Counted from the stretch's first letter, positions 12,007-61,319 are shown. The stretch: DNA of 64,000 bases from Candidatus Omnitrophota bacterium (GCA_043813915.1 JBDRKO010000026.1:66236-130235); one strand, 5' to 3'. A program made the numbers and translations. The notes: generated by a model not told the origin, from the sequence alone.

Positions 12007-12236
12007 AGAGTGTCAAAGTGTCAGAGTATCAGAGTGTCAGGTTGGACCGATGCGGGAAGAAGGGACAGAGGGAAGAAAGACGAAGGAAGAAGGACGAAGG
12101 AAGAAAGACGCGGGCGGACGTGTAATGTTTTATGTGTGATGTGTAAGGACGAGATTGCTTCCCCCCGTCGCTTTGCTCCGCAAAGCGGAGCAGCGGGGGT
12201 CGCAATGACGGGTGGGAGGAAAGGTTGAAAGGGCGA

Positions 12237-18811: not shown

Positions 18812-19237
18812 GGGAGACGAAAGACGAGGGAAGAAGGACGAGAGACGAGGGAAGAGGGACGACTGTTAAGTATCAAGGAGAATAGTTTAAAAGTTAAAGT
18901 TCTGTGGACACCTTTCCCGGGGTAGTGTAAACCCGACCCTCAAGATGTCCCCAGAATATATTTTTACTGGTTACAGGTAACAGACAAAGGGCGTAAAGCC
19001 TGCCTGTCCTGCCTGCGGCAGGTAAACCGGCAGGCAGGGAGTCACCGCGCTTCGCGCTAGAGTCATCATTCGCTACGCTCATTAGGGTCAGAGAGTCAGA
19101 GGGGAAGAAAGACGAAGGAAGAGAGACGCGGGAAGAGTCGCGGAGAGGAGCACGGTTAACTTGCATTTATATTGAATCTATGATAAACTATACTTTATCA
19201 TAGATTTGTTAAATTGTTGAAAAATGGAGTGTGTTTT

Positions 19238-20464: not shown

Positions 20465-20496
20465 TCGGAGAGAACAGTTTAAAAGGTTAACCCATG

Positions 20497-20670
20497 CGCC
20501 CCGGCGAAGCCCCGTGCTTCAGGGCGGGGAAAATATCCGGGGCTCAGGATCAATTGGGAACCCTTCGGCTTCGCTCCCCTCGACAAGCTCCCCTCGGCCT
20601 TGCTCGGGACAGGCGGGGCAGGCAGGGCAGGCCCCGGTCTTTAGACCAGGGTATCGGTGAATTCAGAGCA
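20497..20670. repeat. about 170-bp repeat family J copy 1 (CCCCGGCGAAGCC...GATCAATTGGGAACCCTTCGGCTTCGCTCCCCTCGACAAGCTC...GTCTTTAGACC.GGGTATCGGT.AATT)
   Basis: Second copy at 34783-34945. Confidence 0.7.
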
Positions 20671-20924
20671 CAGGGCATGGCGCATAGTATTAAGAGAGAC
20701 GAAGGAAGAGCTGTTCCCTTGTCATCCCGACCGAACGAAGAGAGCGGAGGGATCTGGTTAAAAGAACATCGGAATCGGGAGATTCCGATGCACCTCGAAC
20801 ATTACGTTCTCGGCGCCTCGATTCGCCTTTGGCTCACTCGGGATGACAGGGTAGGGACATTTTACGAATCACCCCAGCAGATTTCTTCGAAATCTAAGCG
20901 CTGGGGCAGGCGAATTACGAAATC

Positions 20925-22436
20925 ATGACACATAACACATTACACATGACACATAACACAATTTTGCTAACGTTGCTTTTGCTGGCGGGAATACTGCTCT
21001 TCACCAATCTTGGCAATCAGTATCTTTGGCAGGATGAGGCGGAAACAGCGTGTTTGGCGAAAAATACTTTGAAGTACGGCTTTCCAAGGGCATTTGACGG
21101 TGAAAACACCGTAAACCCAAGGATAGGGGAACACTCTCATGTAGGGTTCGGTAAAGATTTCGCATGGCTTTATCATCCTTGGATGCAATTCTACATTACC
21201 GCCGGTTCTTTTTTTCTTTTCGGAATAAGCACATTTACGGCGCGTCTTCCTTTTGCTCTCATCGGACTGTTTAATTTGATACTGCTTTATTTCTTGGCGC
21301 TTAGAATAACAAAAATAAGATTTGTCGCTGTTTGTTCGGTGCTTTTAACCGCGCTTTCCGTCCCGTATCTTCTTATGATGCGGCAATGCAGATATTATGC
21401 TCCGTCGGTGTTCTTTGTGCTTGCCGCTCTTTTTTTCTATTCCCGGTTCAGAGAGAGCAGATCCAACGGGGATCTGGCGTTAACTGCAACGGCTCTGATA
21501 GCTCTGGGATATACGGTGCACGGCATTTTCGTGCCGGTCTATGCGGCTATCGGCATTCATTATATGTTTTTCTCTTTCGACAAAAAGACCTTTCCTCGGG
21601 TGGCGGCGGCGGGAATGTTCACGCTGGCGGCCGTTTTCTGGTGGTTCCTGTTATCCCAAAGTTCGGGGCATATCGCGGTTATTGCTCCGGATAAGATATT
21701 CGGCAATCTTGAGTTTCAGATACGGATGATAAATAAGTATATATTCCCGGTGATGTTTTTCGGGGCAATTTACTGTATCAGAGCCGTCTGGAAGAGGAAG
21801 ATCGGAATTGATCTTATGTCCGAAGAAAAACAGGCTATCAGTTTGATAGGTCTGGTTGTTTTAGTAAGTATTATAACGTTCTGTTTTGTAGAACAAAGGC
21901 ATCTGAGATATTTTGTGTATTTTATACCGTTATTGGCCATGGTACAAGGGCTGATATTGTTGCGTTTAGCCAGGCGGAGCAAGGTGCTTTTGGCGGGATT
22001 CCTAGCGGTCTCTGTTATCACCGGTACTTTTAATATGGGGTACCCGAACTTTCTTTTACCAAAATATATTTACGAGATAACCCATGATTATGACGGACCG
22101 ATAGAAGGCATAGTCAAGTTCCTTGAAAAGAACGCGTCTAAAGGAGATACGGTAAAGATCATATACGGGGATCTGCCGTTGATATTTTATACAGGTCTTA
22201 AAATAGATAATTCCTGGGTCTATGACGATGAGCATATGCCTAGGTGGATAGTCTTTAGACGCGGATGGCATGAGCAGTTAACTAACGATTATTACACGAA
22301 AGTAACTAAAAAATACAAAGAATATGTCCTGGCGTATCCGGATATTTTGTACGAGAACCGGCCGGGCGACCTCGGTTACCACAAATTCGCGACGGACAAG
22401 GAAGCGCCGGGGGTAATAGTGTTCGGGAGGAAATAG
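20925..22436 (+). CDS. ArnT/PMT-like GT-C membrane glycosyltransferase (third paralogue)
   Basis: Polytopic; first loop YLWQDEAETACLAKNT has the DE motif; annotated 5' end runs through an ACACATAACACA repeat module so the true start is probably further downstream. Confidence 0.45.
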   Translation: MTHNTLHMTHNTILLTLLLLAGILLFTNLGNQYLWQDEAETACLAKNTLKYGFPRAFDGENTVNPRIGEHSHVGFGKDFAWLYHPWMQFYITAGSFFLFGISTFTARLPFALIGLFNLILLYFLALRITKIRFVAVCSVLLTALSVPYLLMMRQCRYYAPSVFFVLAALFFYSRFRESRSNGDLALTATALIALGYTVHGIFVPVYAAIGIHYMFFSFDKKTFPRVAAAGMFTLAAVFWWFLLSQSSGHIAVIAPDKIFGNLEFQIRMINKYIFPVMFFGAIYCIRAVWKRKIGIDLMSEEKQAISLIGLVVLVSIITFCFVEQRHLRYFVYFIPLLAMVQGLILLRLARRSKVLLAGFLAVSVITGTFNMGYPNFLLPKYIYEITHDYDGPIEGIVKFLEKNASKGDTVKIIYGDLPLIFYTGLKIDNSWVYDDEHMPRWIVFRRGWHEQLTNDYYTKVTKKYKEYVLAYPDILYENRPGDLGYHKFATDKEAPGVIVFGRK

Positions 22437-22570
22437 AAATAATTGTGTAAGGTGTTATGTGTAATGTGGGGAGGAATTAGTTAAAGGTTAACAAGGGCAT
22501 AGAGCACAGGGCAGAAATGGAGATAGAGGATAGAAACTAGAAACTATATTGGACCATAGACTATTGGATA

Positions 22571-22650
22571 AAGTTACCAGAAACCGGTTACCAGTTACCA
22601 GGGGAAAAGACGTAGATTACTGGTTACAGGTAACAGGCAACTGGTTATTG
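22571..22650. repeat. hairpin-forming intergenic repeat family A (GTTACCAGAAACCGGTTACCAGTTACCAG ... CTGGTTACAGGTAACAGGCAACTGGTTA), MITE-like
   Basis: Four copies: 22571-22650, 26755-26786 (left arm only), 26998-27068, 42588-42655; internal inverted symmetry. Confidence 0.7.
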
Positions 22651-22667
22651 TTAGTAAGGTACAAATC

Positions 22668-22960
22668 ACCCCCTGCAGATTTTTTTGAAATCTAAGCGCG
22701 GGAGCAGGCAAGGCGCCGAGGACGAAATGTTCGAGGTGGGCAAAACGTCCCCGTTTTGACGGAGGTTCCGTTTGCGAGGGAAGCAGTCTAAAAGTCGAAG
22801 GTGGAAGTTCTGAGGACACTCTTCCCGTGGGAGTATAAGCCCTGGCCGAAGAATGTCCCCAGAATATATTTTTATTTCTGTTCACGCTATACGACATTCG
22901 CTATACTCTACACGATATACAAATTAACTGCCATGCGCTGTGCTCTATGCTAATTGTCAC
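22668..22960. repeat. about 300-bp composite repeat, copy 1 (contains AGATTTCTTCGAAATCT palindrome, GACGAAATGTCCGAGGTGGGCAAAACGTCCCCGTTTTGACGGA, GAATGTCCCCAGAATATATTTTTATTTCTGTTCACGCTATACGACATTCGCTATACTCTA)
   Basis: Near-identical to 44761-45105; shorter fragments at 18894-18960, 52340-52360, 52478-52515. Confidence 0.75.
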
Positions 22961-22993: not shown

Positions 22994-24073
22994 ATGAAGA
23001 TCGGATTTGATGCCAGAATGATAACCCACCCGGGCATAGGATCTTATATCAAAGGCTTGGTGCCTGAACTTATCCGTCAAGCGCCGCAAGATAAGTTCGT
23101 TATTTTCGGGGATCCCGAAAAGTTAGCATATATCCCGGAAAAGAGGAACGTAGAATTCATCAAATGGGAGCCTCCCATCTACTCGCTAAGAGAACAATTC
23201 TCTCCTTATGACGGCATGGGATTGGATATTGTGCATATCCCGCATTTTAACGTTCCTGTCTTTTGCCGCACTAAGATGGTAGTTACGGTGCATGATATTA
23301 TCTATTTACTGATGCCGCGTCCTATTTCTTCTCCGATAGCAAAGTTTTACGCAAAATTCATGATAGGACATGTCCTGAGAAGAGCGGGCAAGGTGATATC
23401 TGTTTCAAAGAGCACGAAAAATGATCTTTTATCGGTTTTCGGGAAAAAGTATTCCGAAAAAATAGATGTTGTTCACGAAGCGGCGATCGGCGCTTTTAGA
23501 AAGATCACCGATACGGATACGGTGAATATAGTGAAAGGCAAATACGGTCTTTCTGACAAGGTCGTGCTCTATGTAGGCAGTATTAAACCGCATAAGAACA
23601 TTGATACGCTAATAAAAGTATTTAAGGAACTAAAAAAGAAGGGTGCAGCTCATCAGCTTGTCATAACGGGCAGGTGGGACAAGAAAGAAGATCATTTACG
23701 GAAGTTTATTGACGGCAAGGACATAAAATATATCGGAGAGATCTCTACCGGGGATCTGGTCCTTCTATATAATCATGCCGAGGTGCTTCTCCACCTTTCT
23801 GAATATGAGGGATTCGGCCTTACCATCCTGGAGGCTATGCAGTGCGGAACCCCGGTAGTCTCATCGAACACTTCATCTCTTCCTGAAATAGCGGGTGACG
23901 CGGCGCTTTGTGTTGACCCTCTTGATATTGGACAAATATCGGATACCGTGTATAATGTGATAAACGATATTAATATTAAAAAAGGGCTGATAGAACGCGG
24001 ATTGGAACGGGCCGCTGAGTTTTCATGGCAGGAAACTGCCCGAAGGACCCTCAAAGTATATCACGAAGCGTGA
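22994..24073 (+). CDS. glycosyltransferase family 1 (GT4)
   Basis: EGFGLTILEAMQCGTPVVSS EX7E motif; ATG 22994 with aagagga SD; upstream ORF-track extension lies in the repeat. Confidence 0.7.
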   Translation: MKIGFDARMITHPGIGSYIKGLVPELIRQAPQDKFVIFGDPEKLAYIPEKRNVEFIKWEPPIYSLREQFSPYDGMGLDIVHIPHFNVPVFCRTKMVVTVHDIIYLLMPRPISSPIAKFYAKFMIGHVLRRAGKVISVSKSTKNDLLSVFGKKYSEKIDVVHEAAIGAFRKITDTDTVNIVKGKYGLSDKVVLYVGSIKPHKNIDTLIKVFKELKKKGAAHQLVITGRWDKKEDHLRKFIDGKDIKYIGEISTGDLVLLYNHAEVLLHLSEYEGFGLTILEAMQCGTPVVSSNTSSLPEIAGDAALCVDPLDIGQISDTVYNVINDINIKKGLIERGLERAAEFSWQETARRTLKVYHEA

Positions 24074-26694: not shown

Positions 26695-27151
26695 GTAGAG
26701 CAGAAGTCAGAAGACAGAGGTTAGAAGTCAGAGTGTAGGGGCACGGCATTATATAGAGTTACCAGAAACCGGTTACCAGTTACCAGAAGAAAGACGAGGG
26801 ACGAGATTGCCGCGTCGCTTCGCTCCTCGCAATGACGGATGGGGGGGTTCCGCTTTCGCTAAGGCTAAGGTGGATAGGCGCAATGACGGGTGGAGATAGA
26901 AGGACGAGATAAAACAAGTATTAAGTGTTAAGTTGTAAGTGTTATGTGGAATGTATGGCGATAATGGCATAGAGCATAGAGCGTAGAGCGTTAAATAAAG
27001 TTACCAGAAACCGGTTACCAGTTACCAGGGAAAAGCCTTAGATCACTGGTAACAGGCAACTGGTTACTTTGAAGAAGTCACTGTTCAAGGCCATGCGCCA
27101 TGCTCTATGCCCTATGCGGTTATTTTTATGTTAGCTACACAAGGAGTTCCG

Positions 27152-28835: not shown

Positions 28836-28905
28836 AGAGGATAGAAGTCAGAGAGACGAGAGACGTGGGACGTGGGAAGAAGGACGAGGAATAGGTTCTA
28901 GCGTG

Positions 28906-29135
28906 AAAAAACAGCCGACCCTTTACATGAAGCAAAAAGAAGCTCCGCAGATGCAATGCAAAGGTCCTTTGGATTCAAGCGTTTTAAGTAGGGAAGCAAG
29001 CGACTTTACGGCACAGATATACGGTAGGGCAGTACTGCTGAATTTAATAGGTAAAAGAGACCAAAACGCTTGACTATGTGATGATAAAAGAACCGGACGA
29101 ACGCGAACCAAACTAAGGCTCGAAGAAGCGCTTAA
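28906..29135. repeat. about 220-bp repeat family K copy 1 (GAAGCAAAAAGAAGCTCCGCAGATGCAATGCAAAGGTCCTTTG...ACGGTAGGGCAGTACTGCTGAATTTAA.AGGTAAAAGAGACCAAAACGCTTGACT) followed by GAACGCGAACCAAAC sub-repeats
   Basis: Second copy at 34362-34575, with additional degenerate GAACG(C/A)GAACCAAAC units to 34700. Confidence 0.7.
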
Positions 29136-29868: not shown

Positions 29869-30300
29869 ACAACCCGAGGCAGCCTGTTCCGGGCCCCTCC
29901 GTTACATGGATAAGTGATGAGTCCGAGGTATCCCATTCCATGCTCAGACAGTCCTCGGCCTTCGGCCTGCGGAACTGCGCGTGGAATGGAATGCCTCGGA
30001 CTCTTTTAAACAGGTTCTAGCGATCTTTGATTAATATTGAGTGTGGCGGGTTTTGGGCCCGTCGAGAACCCAAAACCCGCATTGGAAGATTGTTTCCGTC
30101 ATTGCGACCCCCGCTGTTCCGCTTTGCGGGGCAAAGCGACGGGGGGAAGCAATCACTTGGTGTCATCCCGACCGAACGAAGTGAGTGGAGGGATCTGGAT
30201 AATAACAAATGACAAAGCACAAATGACAATTGAATGACAAAATCCAAATGAAAAAAGAAACGCAAGACCCAAAACCCGCATGCGCATATGAGGCTACAAG

Positions 30301-33184: not shown

Positions 33185-33335
33185 GAGGAAACCGCTCTGT
33201 AGCGCTATGTCCAGTGCTCAGACAGTCCTCGGAATATGTCGGAGGCTGGTCGATTCCGGGAGAAATCGACACTTCCTCGGACATTGCGTCCTCGGTCGTG
33301 CAACTGCGCTCTGGACATAGTGCTACAGAGCGTGC
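33185..33335. repeat. about 150-nt nested inverted-repeat structure upstream of fmt (outer arms CCGCTCTGTAGCGCTATGTCCAG / CTGGACATAGTGCTACAGAGCG)
   Basis: Outer 22-bp arms at 33192-33214 and 33310-33331 with several inner hairpins; shares TGCTCAGACAGTCCTCGG module with 29935-29960. Confidence 0.6.
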
Positions 33336-33419: not shown

Positions 33420-34351
33420 TGAAAATAATATTTTTTGGAACAGGAGATTTCGGGCTATCTACCCTTAAACGGCTCATAAAGAGCGGACATGACATTGCCG
33501 CGGTGGTAACGCAGCCTGATAAGAAGAAAGGACGGGGGATGGGGGTCCATCCTACGCCTGTTAAGGCATTGATAGAGGATACCATGCCGGGAACGGATGT
33601 GTTACAGCCGGGAAAACTTACCGGAGAGTTTATTGAGGATATAAAGCGTCCGGAAGCCGATGTTTTTGTGGTAGTGGATTACGGTAAGATCCTGCCGGTA
33701 TCCGTGCTGGAACTGCCTAAACGTTACTGTATAAACCTGCATCCGTCGCTTTTGCCTAAGTACAGAGGTTCGTCGCCCGTGAATCAAGCTATTCTTAACG
33801 GTGACGCGGTAACGGGCAATACGGTCATAAAGATTAACGAACGGATGGATGCCGGAGAGATACTGCTTCAGGAAGAATTCATTATTGGTAAGGATGAGGA
33901 CGCGCTGAGTTTGTCCGAAAGATTATCCGCTCACGGCGCGGAACTTATCATCAAGACGCTGGATATGATAGCCGCGGGAAAGGAAACTCTTACCGCGCAG
34001 GATGAGAGTGAGGCCACCTACGCGGCCAAACTCAAAAAAGAGGACGGTGAGATCGATTGGACCCGAACAGCCGAGGAAATAGACAGAAAGATCAGAGGTC
34101 TTAAACCCTGGCCCGGAGCGTTTACTTATATAAACGGAAAGATGTTAAAGATCCTTGAAGCAGAGATAGCACCTGCACAAAAAGACATAATGCTTGCAGG
34201 TACTGTTTTCCTTGATAAGGAGAGATTACTTGTATCTGCCTCGGACAAGGCGATATATGTAAAAATACTTCAGCTTGAGGGGAGAAAAGCAATGTCTGCT
34301 GAAGAATTTATGAGAGGGTGGCCCATAAAGAAAGGTATGATTTTGGGGTAG
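33420..34351 (+). CDS. fmt: methionyl-tRNA formyltransferase
   Basis: MKIIFFGTGDFG N-terminus, HPSLLPKYRG, C-terminal Fmt domain; upstream ORF-track extension is repeat/structured DNA. Confidence 0.85.
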
Positions 34352-34361
34352 ATCCAAAAGA

Positions 34362-34700
34362 GAAAAAACAACTGAACCTTAACCTGAAGCAAAAAGAAGC
34401 TCCCCAGATGCAATGCAAAGGTCCTTTGCCTTCAAGCGTTTTAAATAGAAGGACCAGCAACTTTACGGCACAAATATACGGTAGGGCAGTACTACTGAAT
34501 TTAACAGGTAAAAGAGACCAAAACGCTTGACTGTGTGCTGACAAAAGAACCGGACGAACGCGACCAAACTAAAACGAGACAAAACGTTTGATATCACTTT
34601 AACGAAACAACTATATGAGCGCGAGCCATATGAACGAGAACCAAACTTAGACAAGTTACTAAACACGGAGCCGGAACAATCGCGAACCAGACGTGAGGTT
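34362..34700. repeat. repeat family K copy 2 plus degenerate GAACGNGAACCAAAC sub-repeats
   Basis: Aligns with 28906-29180. Confidence 0.7.
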
Positions 34701-42045: not shown

Positions 42046-42698
42046 GGGAGAAAGAAATAGAAGTCAGAAATCAGAAGACAGAGGTCAGAAGACAGAGGCC
42101 AGAGGGAAGATAGACGAAGGACGAAAGAAGAAGGACGAGGGAAGAGCTGCTCTCTTGTCATTCCGACCGATTTCTGTGAAGCTTTAGCGAAGCAGAAGAG
42201 CGGAGGAATCTGGTTAAACACAAGAAAGATCCCTCAACTCGTTGCACTCGTTCGGGATGACAGAGCGGGGGCAGGCAAAGGAGATATTGGGTAGAAGATC
42301 CTGAAGGAGAGTCAAAGAGTCATCGCGCTTCGCGCTAGAGTCAGAGAGTCAGGTTGGACCGAGGTGGAAATAGAGTTATGTGTGATGTTATGATGAGGAA
42401 GTGGTTCTTGTTGCTCGTCATTGCGAACTCCGAGCTATGCGAGGGGTGAAGCAATCCCGGATCTTATAGAGATTGCTTCGTCGCCTGCGGCTTCTCGCAA
42501 TGACGGAGTGAGTGCGAATCACGACTTATGCTGTGCCCTTTGCTCTGTGCTCTATGCTGTTAAAGGTTCGTTAAGCAAAGTTACCAGAAACCGGTTACCA
42601 GTTACCAGAAGAACGACGTGATTTGCTGGTTACATGTAACAGGCAACTGGTTACTATTTGTTAGGCACAAATTACCGCTCGCAAAAAAACGATACATT

Positions 42699-44575: not shown

Positions 44576-44760
44576 AGGTCAGAGGATAAAAGAAGTATCA
44601 GAGTGTCAAAGTGTCAGAGTGTCAGAGATGAGCTAAGGAAAAAAGACGATGGACGAGAAAGAGTTTTAAGTGTTATGTGGGATGGAAATAGTTAAAGGTT
44701 AACAAGGGCATAGAGCACAGGGCACAGCGCATAGCATTAAGAAAGACGAAGGAAGAAGGA

Positions 44761-45105
44761 CCCCGGCAGATTTCTTCGAAATCGAAGCGCGGGGGCAGAC
44801 GAAGCGCCGAGGCACCGAGGCACCGAGGACGAAATGTCCGAGGAAGTACTGAGGCCTCCCGGCCGAAGTGACGAAATGTCCGAGGTGGGCAAAACGTCCC
44901 CGTTTTGACGGAAGTCCCGTTTGCGAGGGAAGCAGCCTAAAAGGCGAAGGTGGAAGTTCTGAGGACACTCTTTCCATGGGAGTATAAGCCCTAGTCGAAG
45001 AATGTCCCCAGAATATATTTTTATTTCTGTTCACGCTATACGACATTCGCTATACTCTATACAATATACGAATTAACTGCCATGCCCTGTGCTCTGTGCG
45101 CTATG
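44761..45105. repeat. about 340-bp composite repeat, copy 2 (with internal CGAGGCACCGAGGCACCGAGGAC tandem expansion)
   Basis: Aligns module-for-module with 22668-22960. Confidence 0.75.
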
Positions 45106-45127
45106 CTCTTGAAATGGGTCACTAAAT

Positions 45128-45922
45128 ATGGACAAATTACTTGAAATTAAAGATCTTACCGTGAAAATAGGGGAAAGATACGTTACCGAAAACGTCAATG
45201 TCCCGTTATATGCAGGAAGTATCACGGCTTTGGTAGGAGAATCGGGAAGCGGAAAGACCATTACTGCTCTTTCTGTCCTGAAAATTTTACCCGAAACCGC
45301 GTCTATAGAGAGAGGCGAGATATTGTTTTCGGGAAAGGATCTCTTAAAGACATCCGAAGCGGAGATGAGGGGAATACGGGGAAAACGTATAGCTATGGTA
45401 TTTCAGGAACCTTTTGCCTACTTGAACCCGGTAATGCGCATAGGTGAGCAGATAGGAGAAGTGATAAGGACACATGAGGGCCGATCGAAAAAAGATACCC
45501 TTTCCTATACGGAATACCTTTTAAAGACCGTAAAACTTTCTTCCGATACCGCGTTAAGCTATCCTCATGAGATGTCCGGTGGGATGTGTCAGAGGGCAAT
45601 GATCGCGATGGCTTTGGCATGCGACCCGGAGGTCCTGATCCTGGATGAACCCACCACGGCTCTGGATGTCTCCGTGCAGAAAGACATTCTGGACCTTATC
45701 GTGAAGATACAAAGGGAAAAACTTTTAGGTATTCTTTTTATTACGCACGATCTTTCGGTCGTGAGTATGATAGCTGATAGCGTTCATATTATGAAAGAAG
45801 GCCGTATATTGGAATTCGGGTCAAAGGAAAAGGTTCTAAATGATCCCGGCCATGCCTATACCAGACATCTGATAGCGTGTATTCCCAGGCTGGGAGACAA
45901 AAGGGAGCGGCTAGCGGCATAA
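45128..45922 (+). CDS. ABC transporter ATP-binding protein (OppD/DppD-like)
   Basis: Walker A GESGSGKT, signature MSGGMCQR, Walker B ILDEPTTALD. Confidence 0.85.
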   Translation: MDKLLEIKDLTVKIGERYVTENVNVPLYAGSITALVGESGSGKTITALSVLKILPETASIERGEILFSGKDLLKTSEAEMRGIRGKRIAMVFQEPFAYLNPVMRIGEQIGEVIRTHEGRSKKDTLSYTEYLLKTVKLSSDTALSYPHEMSGGMCQRAMIAMALACDPEVLILDEPTTALDVSVQKDILDLIVKIQREKLLGILFITHDLSVVSMIADSVHIMKEGRILEFGSKEKVLNDPGHAYTRHLIACIPRLGDKRERLAA

Positions 45923-46695: not shown

Positions 46696-46930
46696 ATTGT
46701 GGGAAATGACAGTCAAAATACCTATCACCGGTTTCTAACCTGACAGATCTAACCAGGTTAGCTGCTAACCTGGTTAGAAAACTTAAAAAACTTACCCAAA
46801 AATGATATTGAATATTTAGTAGAAATTTGGTAAACTGGCGGTTCAAATCAGTTCATAGTTGGTAGTTCATAGTTCGTAGCCGGAAGCTAGTAGCTTTGTT
46901 TTTTTGTGACTATAAACTTAATAAAGAAAA

Positions 46931-47044
46931 AACCCGCTTACGCCGAACTATTTAGGTTTCATCTGGCTTCAGCGGGTTAATTCGCACGTATAACTTATAC
47001 CCCTTACAGTTGTATAAGTTATGTGCTCATTAAGGAGAATGTAA
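46931..47044 (+). promoter_or_regulatory. related structured leader upstream of leuC (diverged third copy)
   Basis: cccgct...agcggg hairpin then ttaattcgcacgtataacttatac...tgtataagttatgtgctcattaaggagaatgtaaATG; same architecture and same RBS context. Confidence 0.45.
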
Positions 47045-50039: not shown

Positions 50040-50075
50040 AAGAGTAGGGGCACGGCATGCCGTGCCCCTACATTA
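50040..50075. repeat. palindromic element GTAGGGGCACGGCATGCCGTGCCCCTAC (family H), terminator-like, after leuB
   Basis: Perfect 14-bp inverted repeat; further copies at 55358-55395 (after argC), 52055-52085 (after truA, 1 mismatch), half-site 26738-26755. Confidence 0.7.
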
Positions 50076-52013: not shown

Positions 52014-52578
52014 GACCTAGGAGCAGAAGACAGAAGTCAGACGTCAGAGTGTAGGGGCACGGCATGACGTGCCCTATATGGTTTACGAATCACCCCCGCA
52101 GATTTCTTCGAAATCTAAGCGCGGGGGCAGGCGAAGGACGAGAAAAAAGTGTTAAGTGTTAAGTTTTAAGTGTTATGTGCGGTGTATAATGGCAAAGCGC
52201 ATAGGGTTAAGAAGTCAGAAGGAAGAAGCGTACCGGACTATAGACTATTGACCATAGACTATAGACCAAGAGCTTATAAGTCAATCGTCAATGGTCTGTT
52301 CGGGCTGTTCCCGAGTCACGAAGCACTAATTACTGGTCGAAGAATGTCCCCAGAATAAGGCGCATAGCATTAAGAAAGACGAAGGAAGAAGGACGCGGGA
52401 CGAAGGACGAGATTGCCGCGTCGCTTCGCTCCTCGCAATGACGGAGTAGTCACGAATCACGAATTACTGGACGAAGAATGTCCCCAGAATATATTTTTAT
52501 TTCTGTTCACGTTAAAGAAAGTCCAAGCCTAGAATGATCTCCCGTTAAAGATATCAGCAACTACAGTTATTAATGCAA

Positions 52579-52607
52579 AGACCGGAACTATTTTCGGTCT
52601 TTTTTTT
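52579..52607 (+). terminator. rho-independent terminator (agaccggaa...ttcggtct followed by T8)
   Basis: Short GC stem followed by tttttttt run, just upstream of the AbrB-like gene promoter. Confidence 0.5.
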
Positions 52608-52616
52608 GTTTTTTAA

Positions 52617-52660
52617 TTGACAAGTATTAATACTTGTTATATACTTGTTGCATACTTGTT
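52617..52660 (+). promoter_or_regulatory. promoter (TTGACA-17-TATACT) with three direct ATACTTGTT repeats phased at 11 bp overlapping the -10 region
   Basis: TTGACA 52617-52622, TATACT 52640-52645; ATACTTGTT at 52630, 52641, 52652 (one helical turn apart), immediately upstream of the AbrB-like gene. Confidence 0.5.
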
Positions 52661-53183: not shown

Positions 53184-53258
53184 TACACTTCAGTTTTTAT
53201 ATCACCCTGAACAAGGGTGTTGATACGTGTCGAAAAAAGGGATGAGAAGAGGAAGAGC

Positions 53259-53690
53259 ATGAATAAGACCATAATGGCAAAGTCTTCGGAAACGGATCGC
53301 AGTTGGTATATTATCGACGTGGAAGGAAAGATATTGGGCCGGGCGGCTACTAAAATAGCTAAACTGCTTAGCGGAAAAACACGTCCGGATTATACGCCGA
53401 ATGTCGATACGGGGGCCGGAGTGATCGTTCTGAACTGCGGAGAGGTAAAGGTTACGGGCGCGAAAACGGAACAAAAAATGTATAAAAGTTTTTCGGGTTA
53501 TCCCGGCGGGCAGAAGGAAATAGTTTACAGTAAGATGAAAGAAAAGAACCCGAGACATATAATGAGGCATGCTGTAAAGGGGATGCTTCCCAAGAATAAA
53601 CTGGGGGCTTTGATGATAAAGAGGCTTAAACTGTATGTGGGTAAGGAACATCCTCATACAGCACAAAAGCCCGTTGAAATAAAATTGTAA
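53259..53690 (+). CDS. rplM: 50S ribosomal protein L13
   Basis: [17 protein letters not shown]...YTPNVDTG matches L13 N-terminus; gaggaag SD. Confidence 0.9.
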
Positions 53691-53709
53691 AAAGGACAAA
53701 GGCATAAAA

Positions 53710-54105
53710 ATGGGAAAAATAGTTGAATATGTGACAGTAGGAAGAAGGAAAGAATCCGTTGCAAGGGTAAGGTTGCGGCCGGGAACGGGTAAATTCAAAC
53801 TTAACAAAAGGGAATTCGAGGATTATTTTCCAAGGGAAACCCATAGGATCATGGTTATGAAACCCATTGATATATCAGGGGTGGTCGGAAAATTCGATGT
53901 CATAGCTACGCTTTCCGGAGGCGGGTCGACCGGACAGGCGGGGGCGTTGAGGCATGGGATCACCAGGGCTCTTGTTAAAGTTGATGAAAGTCTGAAAATG
54001 GCTTTAAAGAAAGCCGGTCTGTTGACCAGAGATCCCAGAGCAAAGGAAAGAAAAAAGTACGGTCAGAAGCGTGCGCGTAAAAAATTCCAGTTCTCAAAAC
54101 GTTAA
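53710..54105 (+). CDS. rpsI: 30S ribosomal protein S9
   Basis: [10 protein letters not shown]..., C-terminal basic tail ...RKKFQFSKR typical of S9. Confidence 0.9.
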
Positions 54106-55358: not shown

Positions 55359-55413
55359 AAGAGTAGGGGCACGGCATGCCGTGCCCCTACATCAACATAC
55401 GCAGAGGAAATAT

Positions 55414-59873: not shown

Positions 59874-59970
59874 CCCCGCCCTTTTAAAGGGAAAAGGGCG
59901 GGGTTAATTCGGCCGTATAACTTATGTTCGTTATCACTCCATAAGTTATGGCCTCATTAAGGAGAATGTA
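59874..59970 (+). promoter_or_regulatory. conserved structured leader (GC hairpin + ATAACTTATG/CATAAGTTAT hairpin + RBS) upstream of argG
   Basis: 56 nt identical to the argH leader (61262-61317); related copy upstream of leuC (46931-47044). Confidence 0.5.
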
Positions 59971-61227: not shown

Positions 61228-61319
61228 TCCCGCCCTTTTACAAAAGGGCGGGATTAATTCGGCCGTATAACTTATGTTCGTTATCACTCCATAAGTTATG
61301 GCCTCATTAAGGAGTTGTC
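61228..61319 (+). promoter_or_regulatory. conserved structured leader upstream of argH (second copy)
   Basis: cccgcccttttacaaaagggcggg hairpin then ttaattcggccgtataacttatgttcgttatcactccataagttatggcctcattaaggag identical to argG copy. Confidence 0.5.

Follow-up and report, generated by a model that had tools for sequence, protein, structure and literature searches.

Two spacers in the window (the whole 64 kb stretch of DNA that was analyzed) carry the same multi-module block, and this block is probably part of an interspersed, non-coding repeat mosaic that fills many of the spacers between genes of this Omnitrophota bacterium. The observation itself is real and well supported: copies 1 and 2 of the block (22721-22950 and 44870-45099) align over 230 nt without a gap at 94% identity (blastn E ~2e-99), and each of the modules has its own copy population. 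The families of repeats are new, while the kind of element is already known; by analogy, they come closest to REPIN/BIME and BOX elements and to heptamer arrays of the STRR type. A sequence-only reading of the window had described two distant, near-identical copies of non-coding, repeated, hairpin-rich sequence, and the pairwise alignment bears this out, the identity being maintained over contiguous sequence rather than falling below 70% outside the short modules.

Copies of the block and their spacers

Copy 1 lies between the genes for a PMT_2-family transferase and a GT4 glycosyltransferase (ATG at 22994), and copy 2 between those for OppC and an OppD-type ABC ATPase (start at 45128). The position of both copies just upstream of a gene had been recognized correctly, and the two downstream genes are unrelated. 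Beyond the core the similarity extends leftward, where the hairpin module M1 and a 62 nt block with 90% identity (block A, outside the coordinates of the first reading) are common to both spacers (Table 1). In the pairwise alignment, copy 2 has 58 additional nt separating M1 from the core. An internal tandem expansion had been claimed for this copy; a tandem of the 8-mer CCGAGGCA (2.8 units) is indeed present and was reported by TRF, but the insertion is mostly a second M2 hairpin with a GC hairpin, an arrangement that is also found at an unrelated locus (L029). Period-7 and period-8 arrays were found by TRF in both spacers.

Both copies, each with private variants and its own gene, were recovered in three other assemblies (JGI 3300014656, ENA ERZ27247128 and NCBI GCA_018817765.1), and one contig of another assembly spans oppC, the copy 2 mosaic and oppD. 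Because independent assemblies reproduce each copy attached to its own gene, the duplication is real. Furthermore, the repeat mosaics contain the ends of several short-read contigs from the same organism (L037-L041); the repeats therefore break up assemblies of this lineage, which explains short-read assembly breaks between genes.

The genes of the window lie nearly all on the + strand, with positive GC skew, and their content is housekeeping: a polysaccharide cluster, priA, fmt, gap-pgk-tpiA-secG, oppABCDF, leuCDB, asd, truA, rplM-rpsI, argCJBDFGH and lysA. No transposase or integrase was found among them. Spacers make up 13.5% of the window, and ~48% of spacer nucleotides are repeated in another spacer, compared with 0.3% of coding nucleotides. 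The repeat matches number 153 on the same strand and 22 on opposite strands. In addition, there are ~40 period-7 arrays, almost all in spacers; block A and the module M6 are heptamer arrays of this kind, and the GCATAGA/GCACAGG heptamers of block A are the inverted counterpart of those at the right end of M6.

The order secG-oppABCDF-leuCDB-asd is kept in other Omnitrophota (the oppA-B-C-D-F-leuC-D-B-asd cluster is syntenic in L042, L044 and L047-L050), with junctions that are usually far shorter and in two cases nearly abutting. The oppC-oppD spacer, which measures 552 nt in the window and holds the copy 2 mosaic, is 1 nt in L042 and 3 nt in L049, both without content, 23 nt in L048, ~45 nt with GCTCATG heptamers in L050, 56 nt with two other small hairpins in L047 and 71 nt with a single M5-like hairpin in L044. 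From these differing lengths and contents, the junction is therefore seen as a permissive site that has been colonized repeatedly. No close relative with >80% OppD identity for an empty-site comparison was present in the protein database (best 64%), and the comparison is therefore a deeper, syntenic one rather than one within a species. Modular hairpin and heptamer repeats thus burden this uncultured lineage heavily and swell core-operon junctions from a few bases to >500.

Table 1. Positions of the modules of the two copies and of related features (window coordinates unless a locus is named)
Feature	Position	Strand	Details
Block A, copy 1	22452-22513	+	GTGTWAT heptamers, GTTAAAGGTTAAC, GCATAGA/GCACAGG heptamers; period-7 array 22444-22468
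GTTACCAG / CTGGTTACAGGTAACAGG modules	22552-22659	+	copy 1 only, missing in copy 2; families D7, D11, D19; further copies 26737-27068, 42559-42683
M1 nested hairpin, copy 1	22660-22713	+	CCCCNGC-AGATTTC-TTC-GAAATCT-AAGC-GCN'GGGG
M2 hairpin, copy 1	22716-22738	+	CC-GA-GGAC-GAAAT-GTTC-GA-GG, then TG
M3 hairpin, copy 1	22739-22760	+	GGCAAAACG-TCCC-CGTTTTGAC; exact copy at 44888
M4 linker, copy 1	22761-22807	+	small hairpin TCCGTTTGCGAGGGA, then CTAAAAGTCGAAGGTGGAAG
M5 long hairpin and tail, copy 1	22808-22874	+	predicted fold -28.9 kcal/mol, z -3.4; left arm 22808-22818 TTCTGAGGACA; right arm 22854-22864 TGTCCCCAGAA; tail 22865-22874 TATATTTTTA
M6, copy 1	22875-22950	+	TTTCTGTTCACG, 7-nt register CTATACG ACATTCG CTATACT CTACACG ATATACA, then GCGCTGT/GCTCTAT heptamers
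Block A, copy 2	44663-44724	+	match to 22452-22513
M1 hairpin, copy 2	44751-44804	+	
Extra module, copy 2 only	44805-44869	+	CCGAGGCA 8-mer tandem, second M2 44828-44845, GC hairpin GAGGCCTCCCGGCC; inverted relative 33256-33296
M2 (proximal) and M3, copy 2	44870-44909	+	
M4 linker, copy 2	44910-44956	+	
M5 hairpin and tail, copy 2	44957-45023	+	predicted fold -26.1 kcal/mol, z -3.3
M6 heptamer region, copy 2	45024-45110	+	period-7 array 45083-45109
Complete M5, second subfamily, with tail	18900-18966	+	interior CACCTTTCCCGGGGTAGTGTAAACC; same subfamily in L002, L027, L029
M5 right-arm fragment	52333-52357	+	
M5 right arm, tail and M6 start (TTTCTGTTCACG)	52467-52514	+	96% identical to 22842-22889
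Independent M1 copy	20863-20914	+	
Independent M1 copy	52084-52137	+	
Promoter-like motif upstream of leuC	46800-46850; L042 5533-5632; L044 3852-4016; L048; L049		

Module populations and the M5 hairpin

The M1 hairpin GCAGATTTCTTCGAAATCTAAGCGC has four copies in the window, all on the + strand, where none is expected by chance. The palindrome quoted by the first reading for both copies of the block is the M1 consensus; M1 is present in each, but the quoted sequence is inexact at both sites (22675, two mismatches; 44766, one mismatch) and occurs exactly at 20877 and 52098. The outer stem differs between copies in a compensatory manner (CCCCAGC/GCTGGGG versus CCCCCGC/GCGGGGG). M2, with the consensus CC-GA-GNAC-GWAAT-GTN'C-GA-GG, has five copies in the window in both orientations (inverted at 20791-20818 and 33271-33296), and its N:N' pair, compared over 16 loci, is G:C, A:T or C:G except for two G.T pairs and two mismatches.

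A metagenome scan with the exact M3 22-mer gave 16 loci, 13 of them from a single metagenome, the one in which the window's own locus (L022) is also found. M2 and M3 always occur together at the metagenome loci, 14 of which are additional to the two window copies, while the sequence 3' of M3 differs among them and only L036, L035 and L021 partly repeat the order M4-M5-M6. M4, a linker with a small hairpin and the end AAAAGKCGAAGGTGGAAG, was found in the window only in copies 1 and 2, and variants of it occur in L021, L035 and L036; the adjacency of M3 and M4 is the only feature private to the two window copies. M6 consists of TTTCTGTTCACG, units in a 7-nt register (CTATACG and so on) and then GCTATGC/GCTCTGT heptamers. 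Linked to M5, it recurs in the same metagenome (L024, L026, L029, L035 and L036) with varying numbers of the 7-nt unit, and in L024 the left arm of M5 is deleted between two CGAAG repeats. Taken as a whole, the M2-M6 block has only two copies in the window, and other loci share subsets of its modules.

M5 is a 57-nt hairpin (GTTCTGGGGACAC...ATGTCCCCAGAA) followed by the tail TATATTTTTA, and can be seen as two inverted ~17-nt units folding into a long hairpin, with TTCTG(A/T/G)GGACA as the left arm, TGTCCCCAGAA as the right arm and GAAG or GAGG as the left flank. Three complete copies and two fragments lie in the window. The first reading had reported fragments of the element elsewhere, and related pieces do exist there; however, the one near 18900 is a complete M5 of a second subfamily (~80% identical) rather than a fragment, and that at 52340-52515 comprises two right-arm-only pieces. 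A total of 38 distinct copies were counted among the loci examined. A scan of species-representative genomes with an M5 22-mer gave 20 loci in five Candidatus Omnitrophota MAGs, and no fewer than five Omnitrophota species besides this one have the family. With a difference of 1 nt between the M5 of copy 1 and the L036 copy, and of 4 nt between the M5s of copies 1 and 2, the module behaves like a population of copies, not like a pair.

Further genomic copies, which the first reading had proposed for a check of structure and covariance, revealed compensatory changes in the M5 stems and at one M2 position. In an alignment of 21 M5 copies from three genomes (A3), 99.2% of cells are paired in the long hairpin, compared with 17-49% in slid controls. 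In three pairs both bases have changed, in 13 cells altogether: one outer-stem pair went from T:A to C:G, and two inner-stem pairs from C:G to T:A. None of 500 shuffles reached this number. In a second alignment, of 15 copies of the window's M5 subtype (A2), pairing is 90%, with one mid-outer-stem mismatch in 11 of the 15 copies. An alternative local hairpin within M5 (ACACCC/GGGTGT) is paired in 78%, weaker support than that for the long hairpin. By these counts, the pairing of M5 and M2 within one strand, be it RNA or DNA, has been under selection.

Relative to flanking genes, 27 of the 38 M5 copies are co-oriented (~70%) and 11 are antisense. This bias could reflect either transcription or replication, which are inseparable here because the direction of the genes matches that of GC skew in every locus. 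Read in its own orientation, M5 is always (left arm)n - right arm - AT tail, and MAG020 has M5 arrays with a 46-nt period. At L007 (7264-7411 and 4670-4865) and L011 (3847-3999), which belong to other Omnitrophota MAGs, the left arm and interior are repeated in tandem every 46-49 nt and are followed by a single right arm and AT tail. In other species M5 is located at ftsI-murE, between V-ATPase subunits B and D, at NTP-transferase-dehydratase and at waaA-lpxK junctions, often 3-17 nt past a stop codon and with a tail that runs up to the following start codon.

Since its 94% identity spans several modules, the 230-nt block would have arisen recently, through duplication or gene conversion between two mosaics rather than by transposition of a bounded element. 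The modules may have spread at the DNA level through REPIN- or MITE-like mobilization, with reshuffling by slippage or recombination at short repeats. The mosaics would be transcribed within operon mRNA, in which the hairpins may act like REP, BIME or BOX sequences, terminating transcription in part or impeding RNA decay, instead of regulating specifically the two genes that follow. M5 itself is most likely a transcribed intercistronic hairpin that is tolerated within operons, because it lies inside operons, sometimes without promoter room, and in both orientations. Both the mobility and the RNA-level effects are what we infer from sequence; an effect of M5 on termination or RNA decay is plausible. 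The mosaics provide concrete sites for asking whether repeats shape transcript processing in operons, and named, alignable repeat families are now available for the lineage, at least one module of which has kept its arm sequence across quite divergent species.

Alternative readings of the block

An unlikely reading makes M5 and M6 a mobile promoter, a cassette of terminator plus promoter in which the hairpin and U-rich tail would stop upstream transcription while the AT-rich tail, as an UP element, and TTCACG, as a -35 box, would restart the next gene; insertion into operons would then be tolerable. The strong M5 hairpin (-24 to -33 kcal/mol) is indeed followed by UAUAUUUUUA, and in front of several unrelated genes M5 and M6 lie 20-45 nt ahead of the start codon. 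TTCACG-N15-TATACT is found in copies 1 and 2, and TTCACG-N18-TAGAAT, with 9 of 12 matches, follows the truncated M5/M6 copy at 52506-52535. The organism also uses canonical promoters, such as TTGACA-N17-TATACT at 52617. However, the consensus scan found no + strand promoter in copy 1 or 2, the 15-nt spacer of TTCACG-TATACT being below the accepted 16-18 nt, and heptamer indels alter the distance from TTCACG to the box between M6 copies. As a terminator, M5 gives a mixed picture: the stem is strong, but the T run of UAUAUUUUUA is interrupted and the scan made no terminator call at M5. The T run is much longer in the only canonical intrinsic terminator that the scan called in the window, at 52577. 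M5 is not confined to the ends of transcription units, as it lies within the opp, ftsI-murE (dcw cluster), V-ATPase and waaA-lpxK clusters; in other species it abuts the start codon without room for a promoter and sits within classic operons, and the antisense copies likewise argue against a cassette.

Putative mobile promoters are defined operationally as sequences of >50 nt with >=80% identity within -150 to -50 of a start codon and with non-homologous upstream and downstream coding sequences (PMC3488235). The stretches 22844-22944 and 44993-45093 (~94% identity) fall within this definition, their flanking genes (PMT_2/GT4 and OppC/OppD) being non-homologous, although the class is defined purely by sequence similarity. 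Because of this membership and of the position directly upstream of start codons, a specific regulatory role for M5 and M6 is possible.

Near the truncated copy, the promoter-like TTCACG and TAGAAT with 18-nt spacing are followed ~40 nt on by the canonical terminator at 52577-52612 (11-bp stem and T run), and this pair (52506-52612) could, judged by its motifs, specify a small RNA of ~65 nt. A promoter-like TTGAWT-N17-TAAACT with AAATTTGGTAAACTG was also noted upstream of leuC; it is conserved in several Omnitrophota species and was left uncalled by the consensus scan.

The arms (11 nt) and tail of M5 are nearly identical across species with OppD proteins that are only ~63% identical, and REP arms are usually conserved over much less divergent species. 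Such conservation exceeds the expectation for a purely selfish repeat and could point to a host function. M5 might then be a lineage-wide, sequence-specific intercistronic signal with arms and AU tail bound by a conserved host factor, which is a long shot. The factor could be an RNA-processing or -stabilizing protein that punctuates operon transcripts, or a DNA-level reader of an uptake-signal-like motif, and the modules around M5 would in that case be co-evolving with it as a set of tools for adjusting expression inside operons. No M5 22-mer match was obtained in a scan of viral contigs, and no copy of the arm was found in coding sequence among the loci examined.

It is very unlikely that the region in its entirety forms one discrete non-autonomous transposon (MITE) of ~300-500 bp ending in the inverted heptamer arrays GCATAGAGCACAGGGCA ... 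TGCCATGCGCTGTGCTCTATGC. The composite element of the first reading, for which a MITE-like nature was one of its proposals, is likewise not supported as a single unit with fixed ends. Inverted GCAYAGR/YCTRTGC arrays do flank both mosaics, which are collinear and without coding capacity. However, the distance between the arrays is ~457 nt in one copy and 405 nt in the other owing to the presence or absence of whole modules, and the same heptamers stand alone at 20665, 26967, 42531 and 59806. No target-site duplication, which that reading had suggested looking for, was seen at any candidate border on reading the sequence. With neither duplicated targets nor constant ends, the region does not look like a bounded MITE, and M1, M2 and M5 occur independently. 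Neither the 352 kb searched nor the loci from the scan with the exact M3 22-mer contained a third full unit.

The other proposal of the first reading, one structured RNA, has fared still less well, and a cis-regulatory leader or small RNA gene spanning M2-M5, with M5 as its terminator, is highly improbable. The compensatory changes in the hairpins would suit it, as would the location directly upstream of genes and the co-orientation of modules and genes in the window. Nevertheless, the fold of the whole block has z-scores of only -1.5 and -2.6 and resembles a row of local hairpins, and the genes that follow, GT4, OppD and, at L036, a third one with a sequence unlike either, are unrelated. The modules also occur separately, and the M3/M5 mosaic of L035 is antisense to its flanking genes. 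Covariance models of Rfam 15 gave no match at the gathering score across the window and nothing beyond chance-level matches at E<=5 in the two spacers with the block, and no tRNA or tmRNA gene was found in the window.

An integron attC site was rejected: the RYYYAAC ... GTTRRRY core sites are absent, the M5 arms being TTCTGGGGACA / TGTCCCCAGAA, the neighbors are housekeeping genes and no integrase was found. The chance that the similarity stems from an assembly artefact or a small minus-strand protein gene is negligible, despite the contig breaks inside mosaics and the ORFs at 22595-22897 (100 aa) and 44699-45046 (115 aa) that overlap the copies, as the artefact is rejected by the three assemblies and the spanning contig described above, and the protein by the 58-nt indel, which shifts the frame between the ORFs, and by the absence of the ORF start (CAT on the + strand, within CGACATTCGC) from the related copies L024, L035 and L036. 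ORFs of 100-200 aa that overlap mosaics or run antisense to rplM-rpsI (these two and those at 20494-20928 and 53202-53807) are probably spurious gene calls, and a Pfam scan of the latter two gave no match; the mosaics caution against annotating such ORFs.

Known repeat systems and other repeats of the window

For the repeat mosaic, a literature search on Omnitrophota repeats or M5 arm sequences returned nothing relevant, and the comparison was made with systems of other phyla. BIMEs are found within operons, cluster short motifs into mosaics and persist across related species, as is the case for M5, and REPs have a conserved GTAG-like tetranucleotide 5' of the palindrome. Like the REP/REPIN and BIME sequences of Enterobacteria and Pseudomonas (PMC3116915, PMC3337134), M5 is extragenic and multi-copy, with two inverted units that form a long hairpin. 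However, M5 and REP have no sequence similarity, the 5' flank of M5 is GARG rather than GTAG-like, and M5 arrays follow the (left arm)n - right arm - AT tail pattern (46-nt period in L007) instead of alternating orientations. A tblastn search with E. coli RayT against 352 kb gave no match better than E=1.9, a result that is uninformative in so small a search space.

The boxA-(boxB)n-boxC elements of Streptococcus pneumoniae resemble the mosaic in their modularity, variable number of internal modules, hairpins and intergenic, non-coding nature, and their mobilization mechanism is likewise unknown (PMC3049150). They differ in sequence and host phylum, and the mosaic has many more module types, no fixed A...C frame and interleaved heptamer arrays. 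Cyanobacterial STRR sequences, as reportedly described by Mazel et al. in 1990, are 7-nt tandem arrays confined to spacers, with several families per genome. The period-7 arrays of the window, almost all in spacers and of several families, are STRR-like in this sense, but they have other heptamer sequences, belong to another phylum and are interleaved with hairpin modules. In Correia elements (Neisseria) and in uptake-sequence pairs that form terminators, short inverted arms form a transcribed hairpin beside genes, with a conserved inverted 11-12-mer pair and then a T-rich tail. M5 differs from these in that it has no TA target duplication, no arm copy in coding sequence and compensatory arm variants (TTCC.../...GGAA).

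Several other repeats were noted in the window. A 73-nt repeat at 46965-47037, 59892-59964 and 61242-61314 ends at the Shine-Dalgarno sequences of leuC, argG and argH, respectively, and contains a 14-bp hairpin (GGCCGTATAACTTATG / CATAAGTTATGGCC); three compensatory pairs (GCACGTATAACTTATA / TATAAGTTATGTGC) distinguish the leuC copy, and a CCCGCCCTTTT...AAAAGGGCGGG hairpin lies upstream in the argG and argH copies. It may be a shared cis-regulatory leader of amino-acid biosynthesis genes. A second large repeat of 220 nt (28892-29111 versus 34349-34568, 86% identity) is shared by two other spacers and also occurs in L033 and L034, with internal units of ~55 nt that have the end GAACGCGAACCAAACTAA and TTGAC-like boxes. 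Identical 28-nt perfect palindromes (GTAGGGGCACGGCATGCCGTGCCCCTAC) follow leuB (50044-50071) and argC (55363-55390), with a diverged copy at 52044-52074. Finally, a 59-nt hairpin module (GATTGC...GCAATGACGG) is present at 12153-12211 and 30096-30154 in opposite orientations, the two copies being 97% complementary, and has relatives in L023 and L044.
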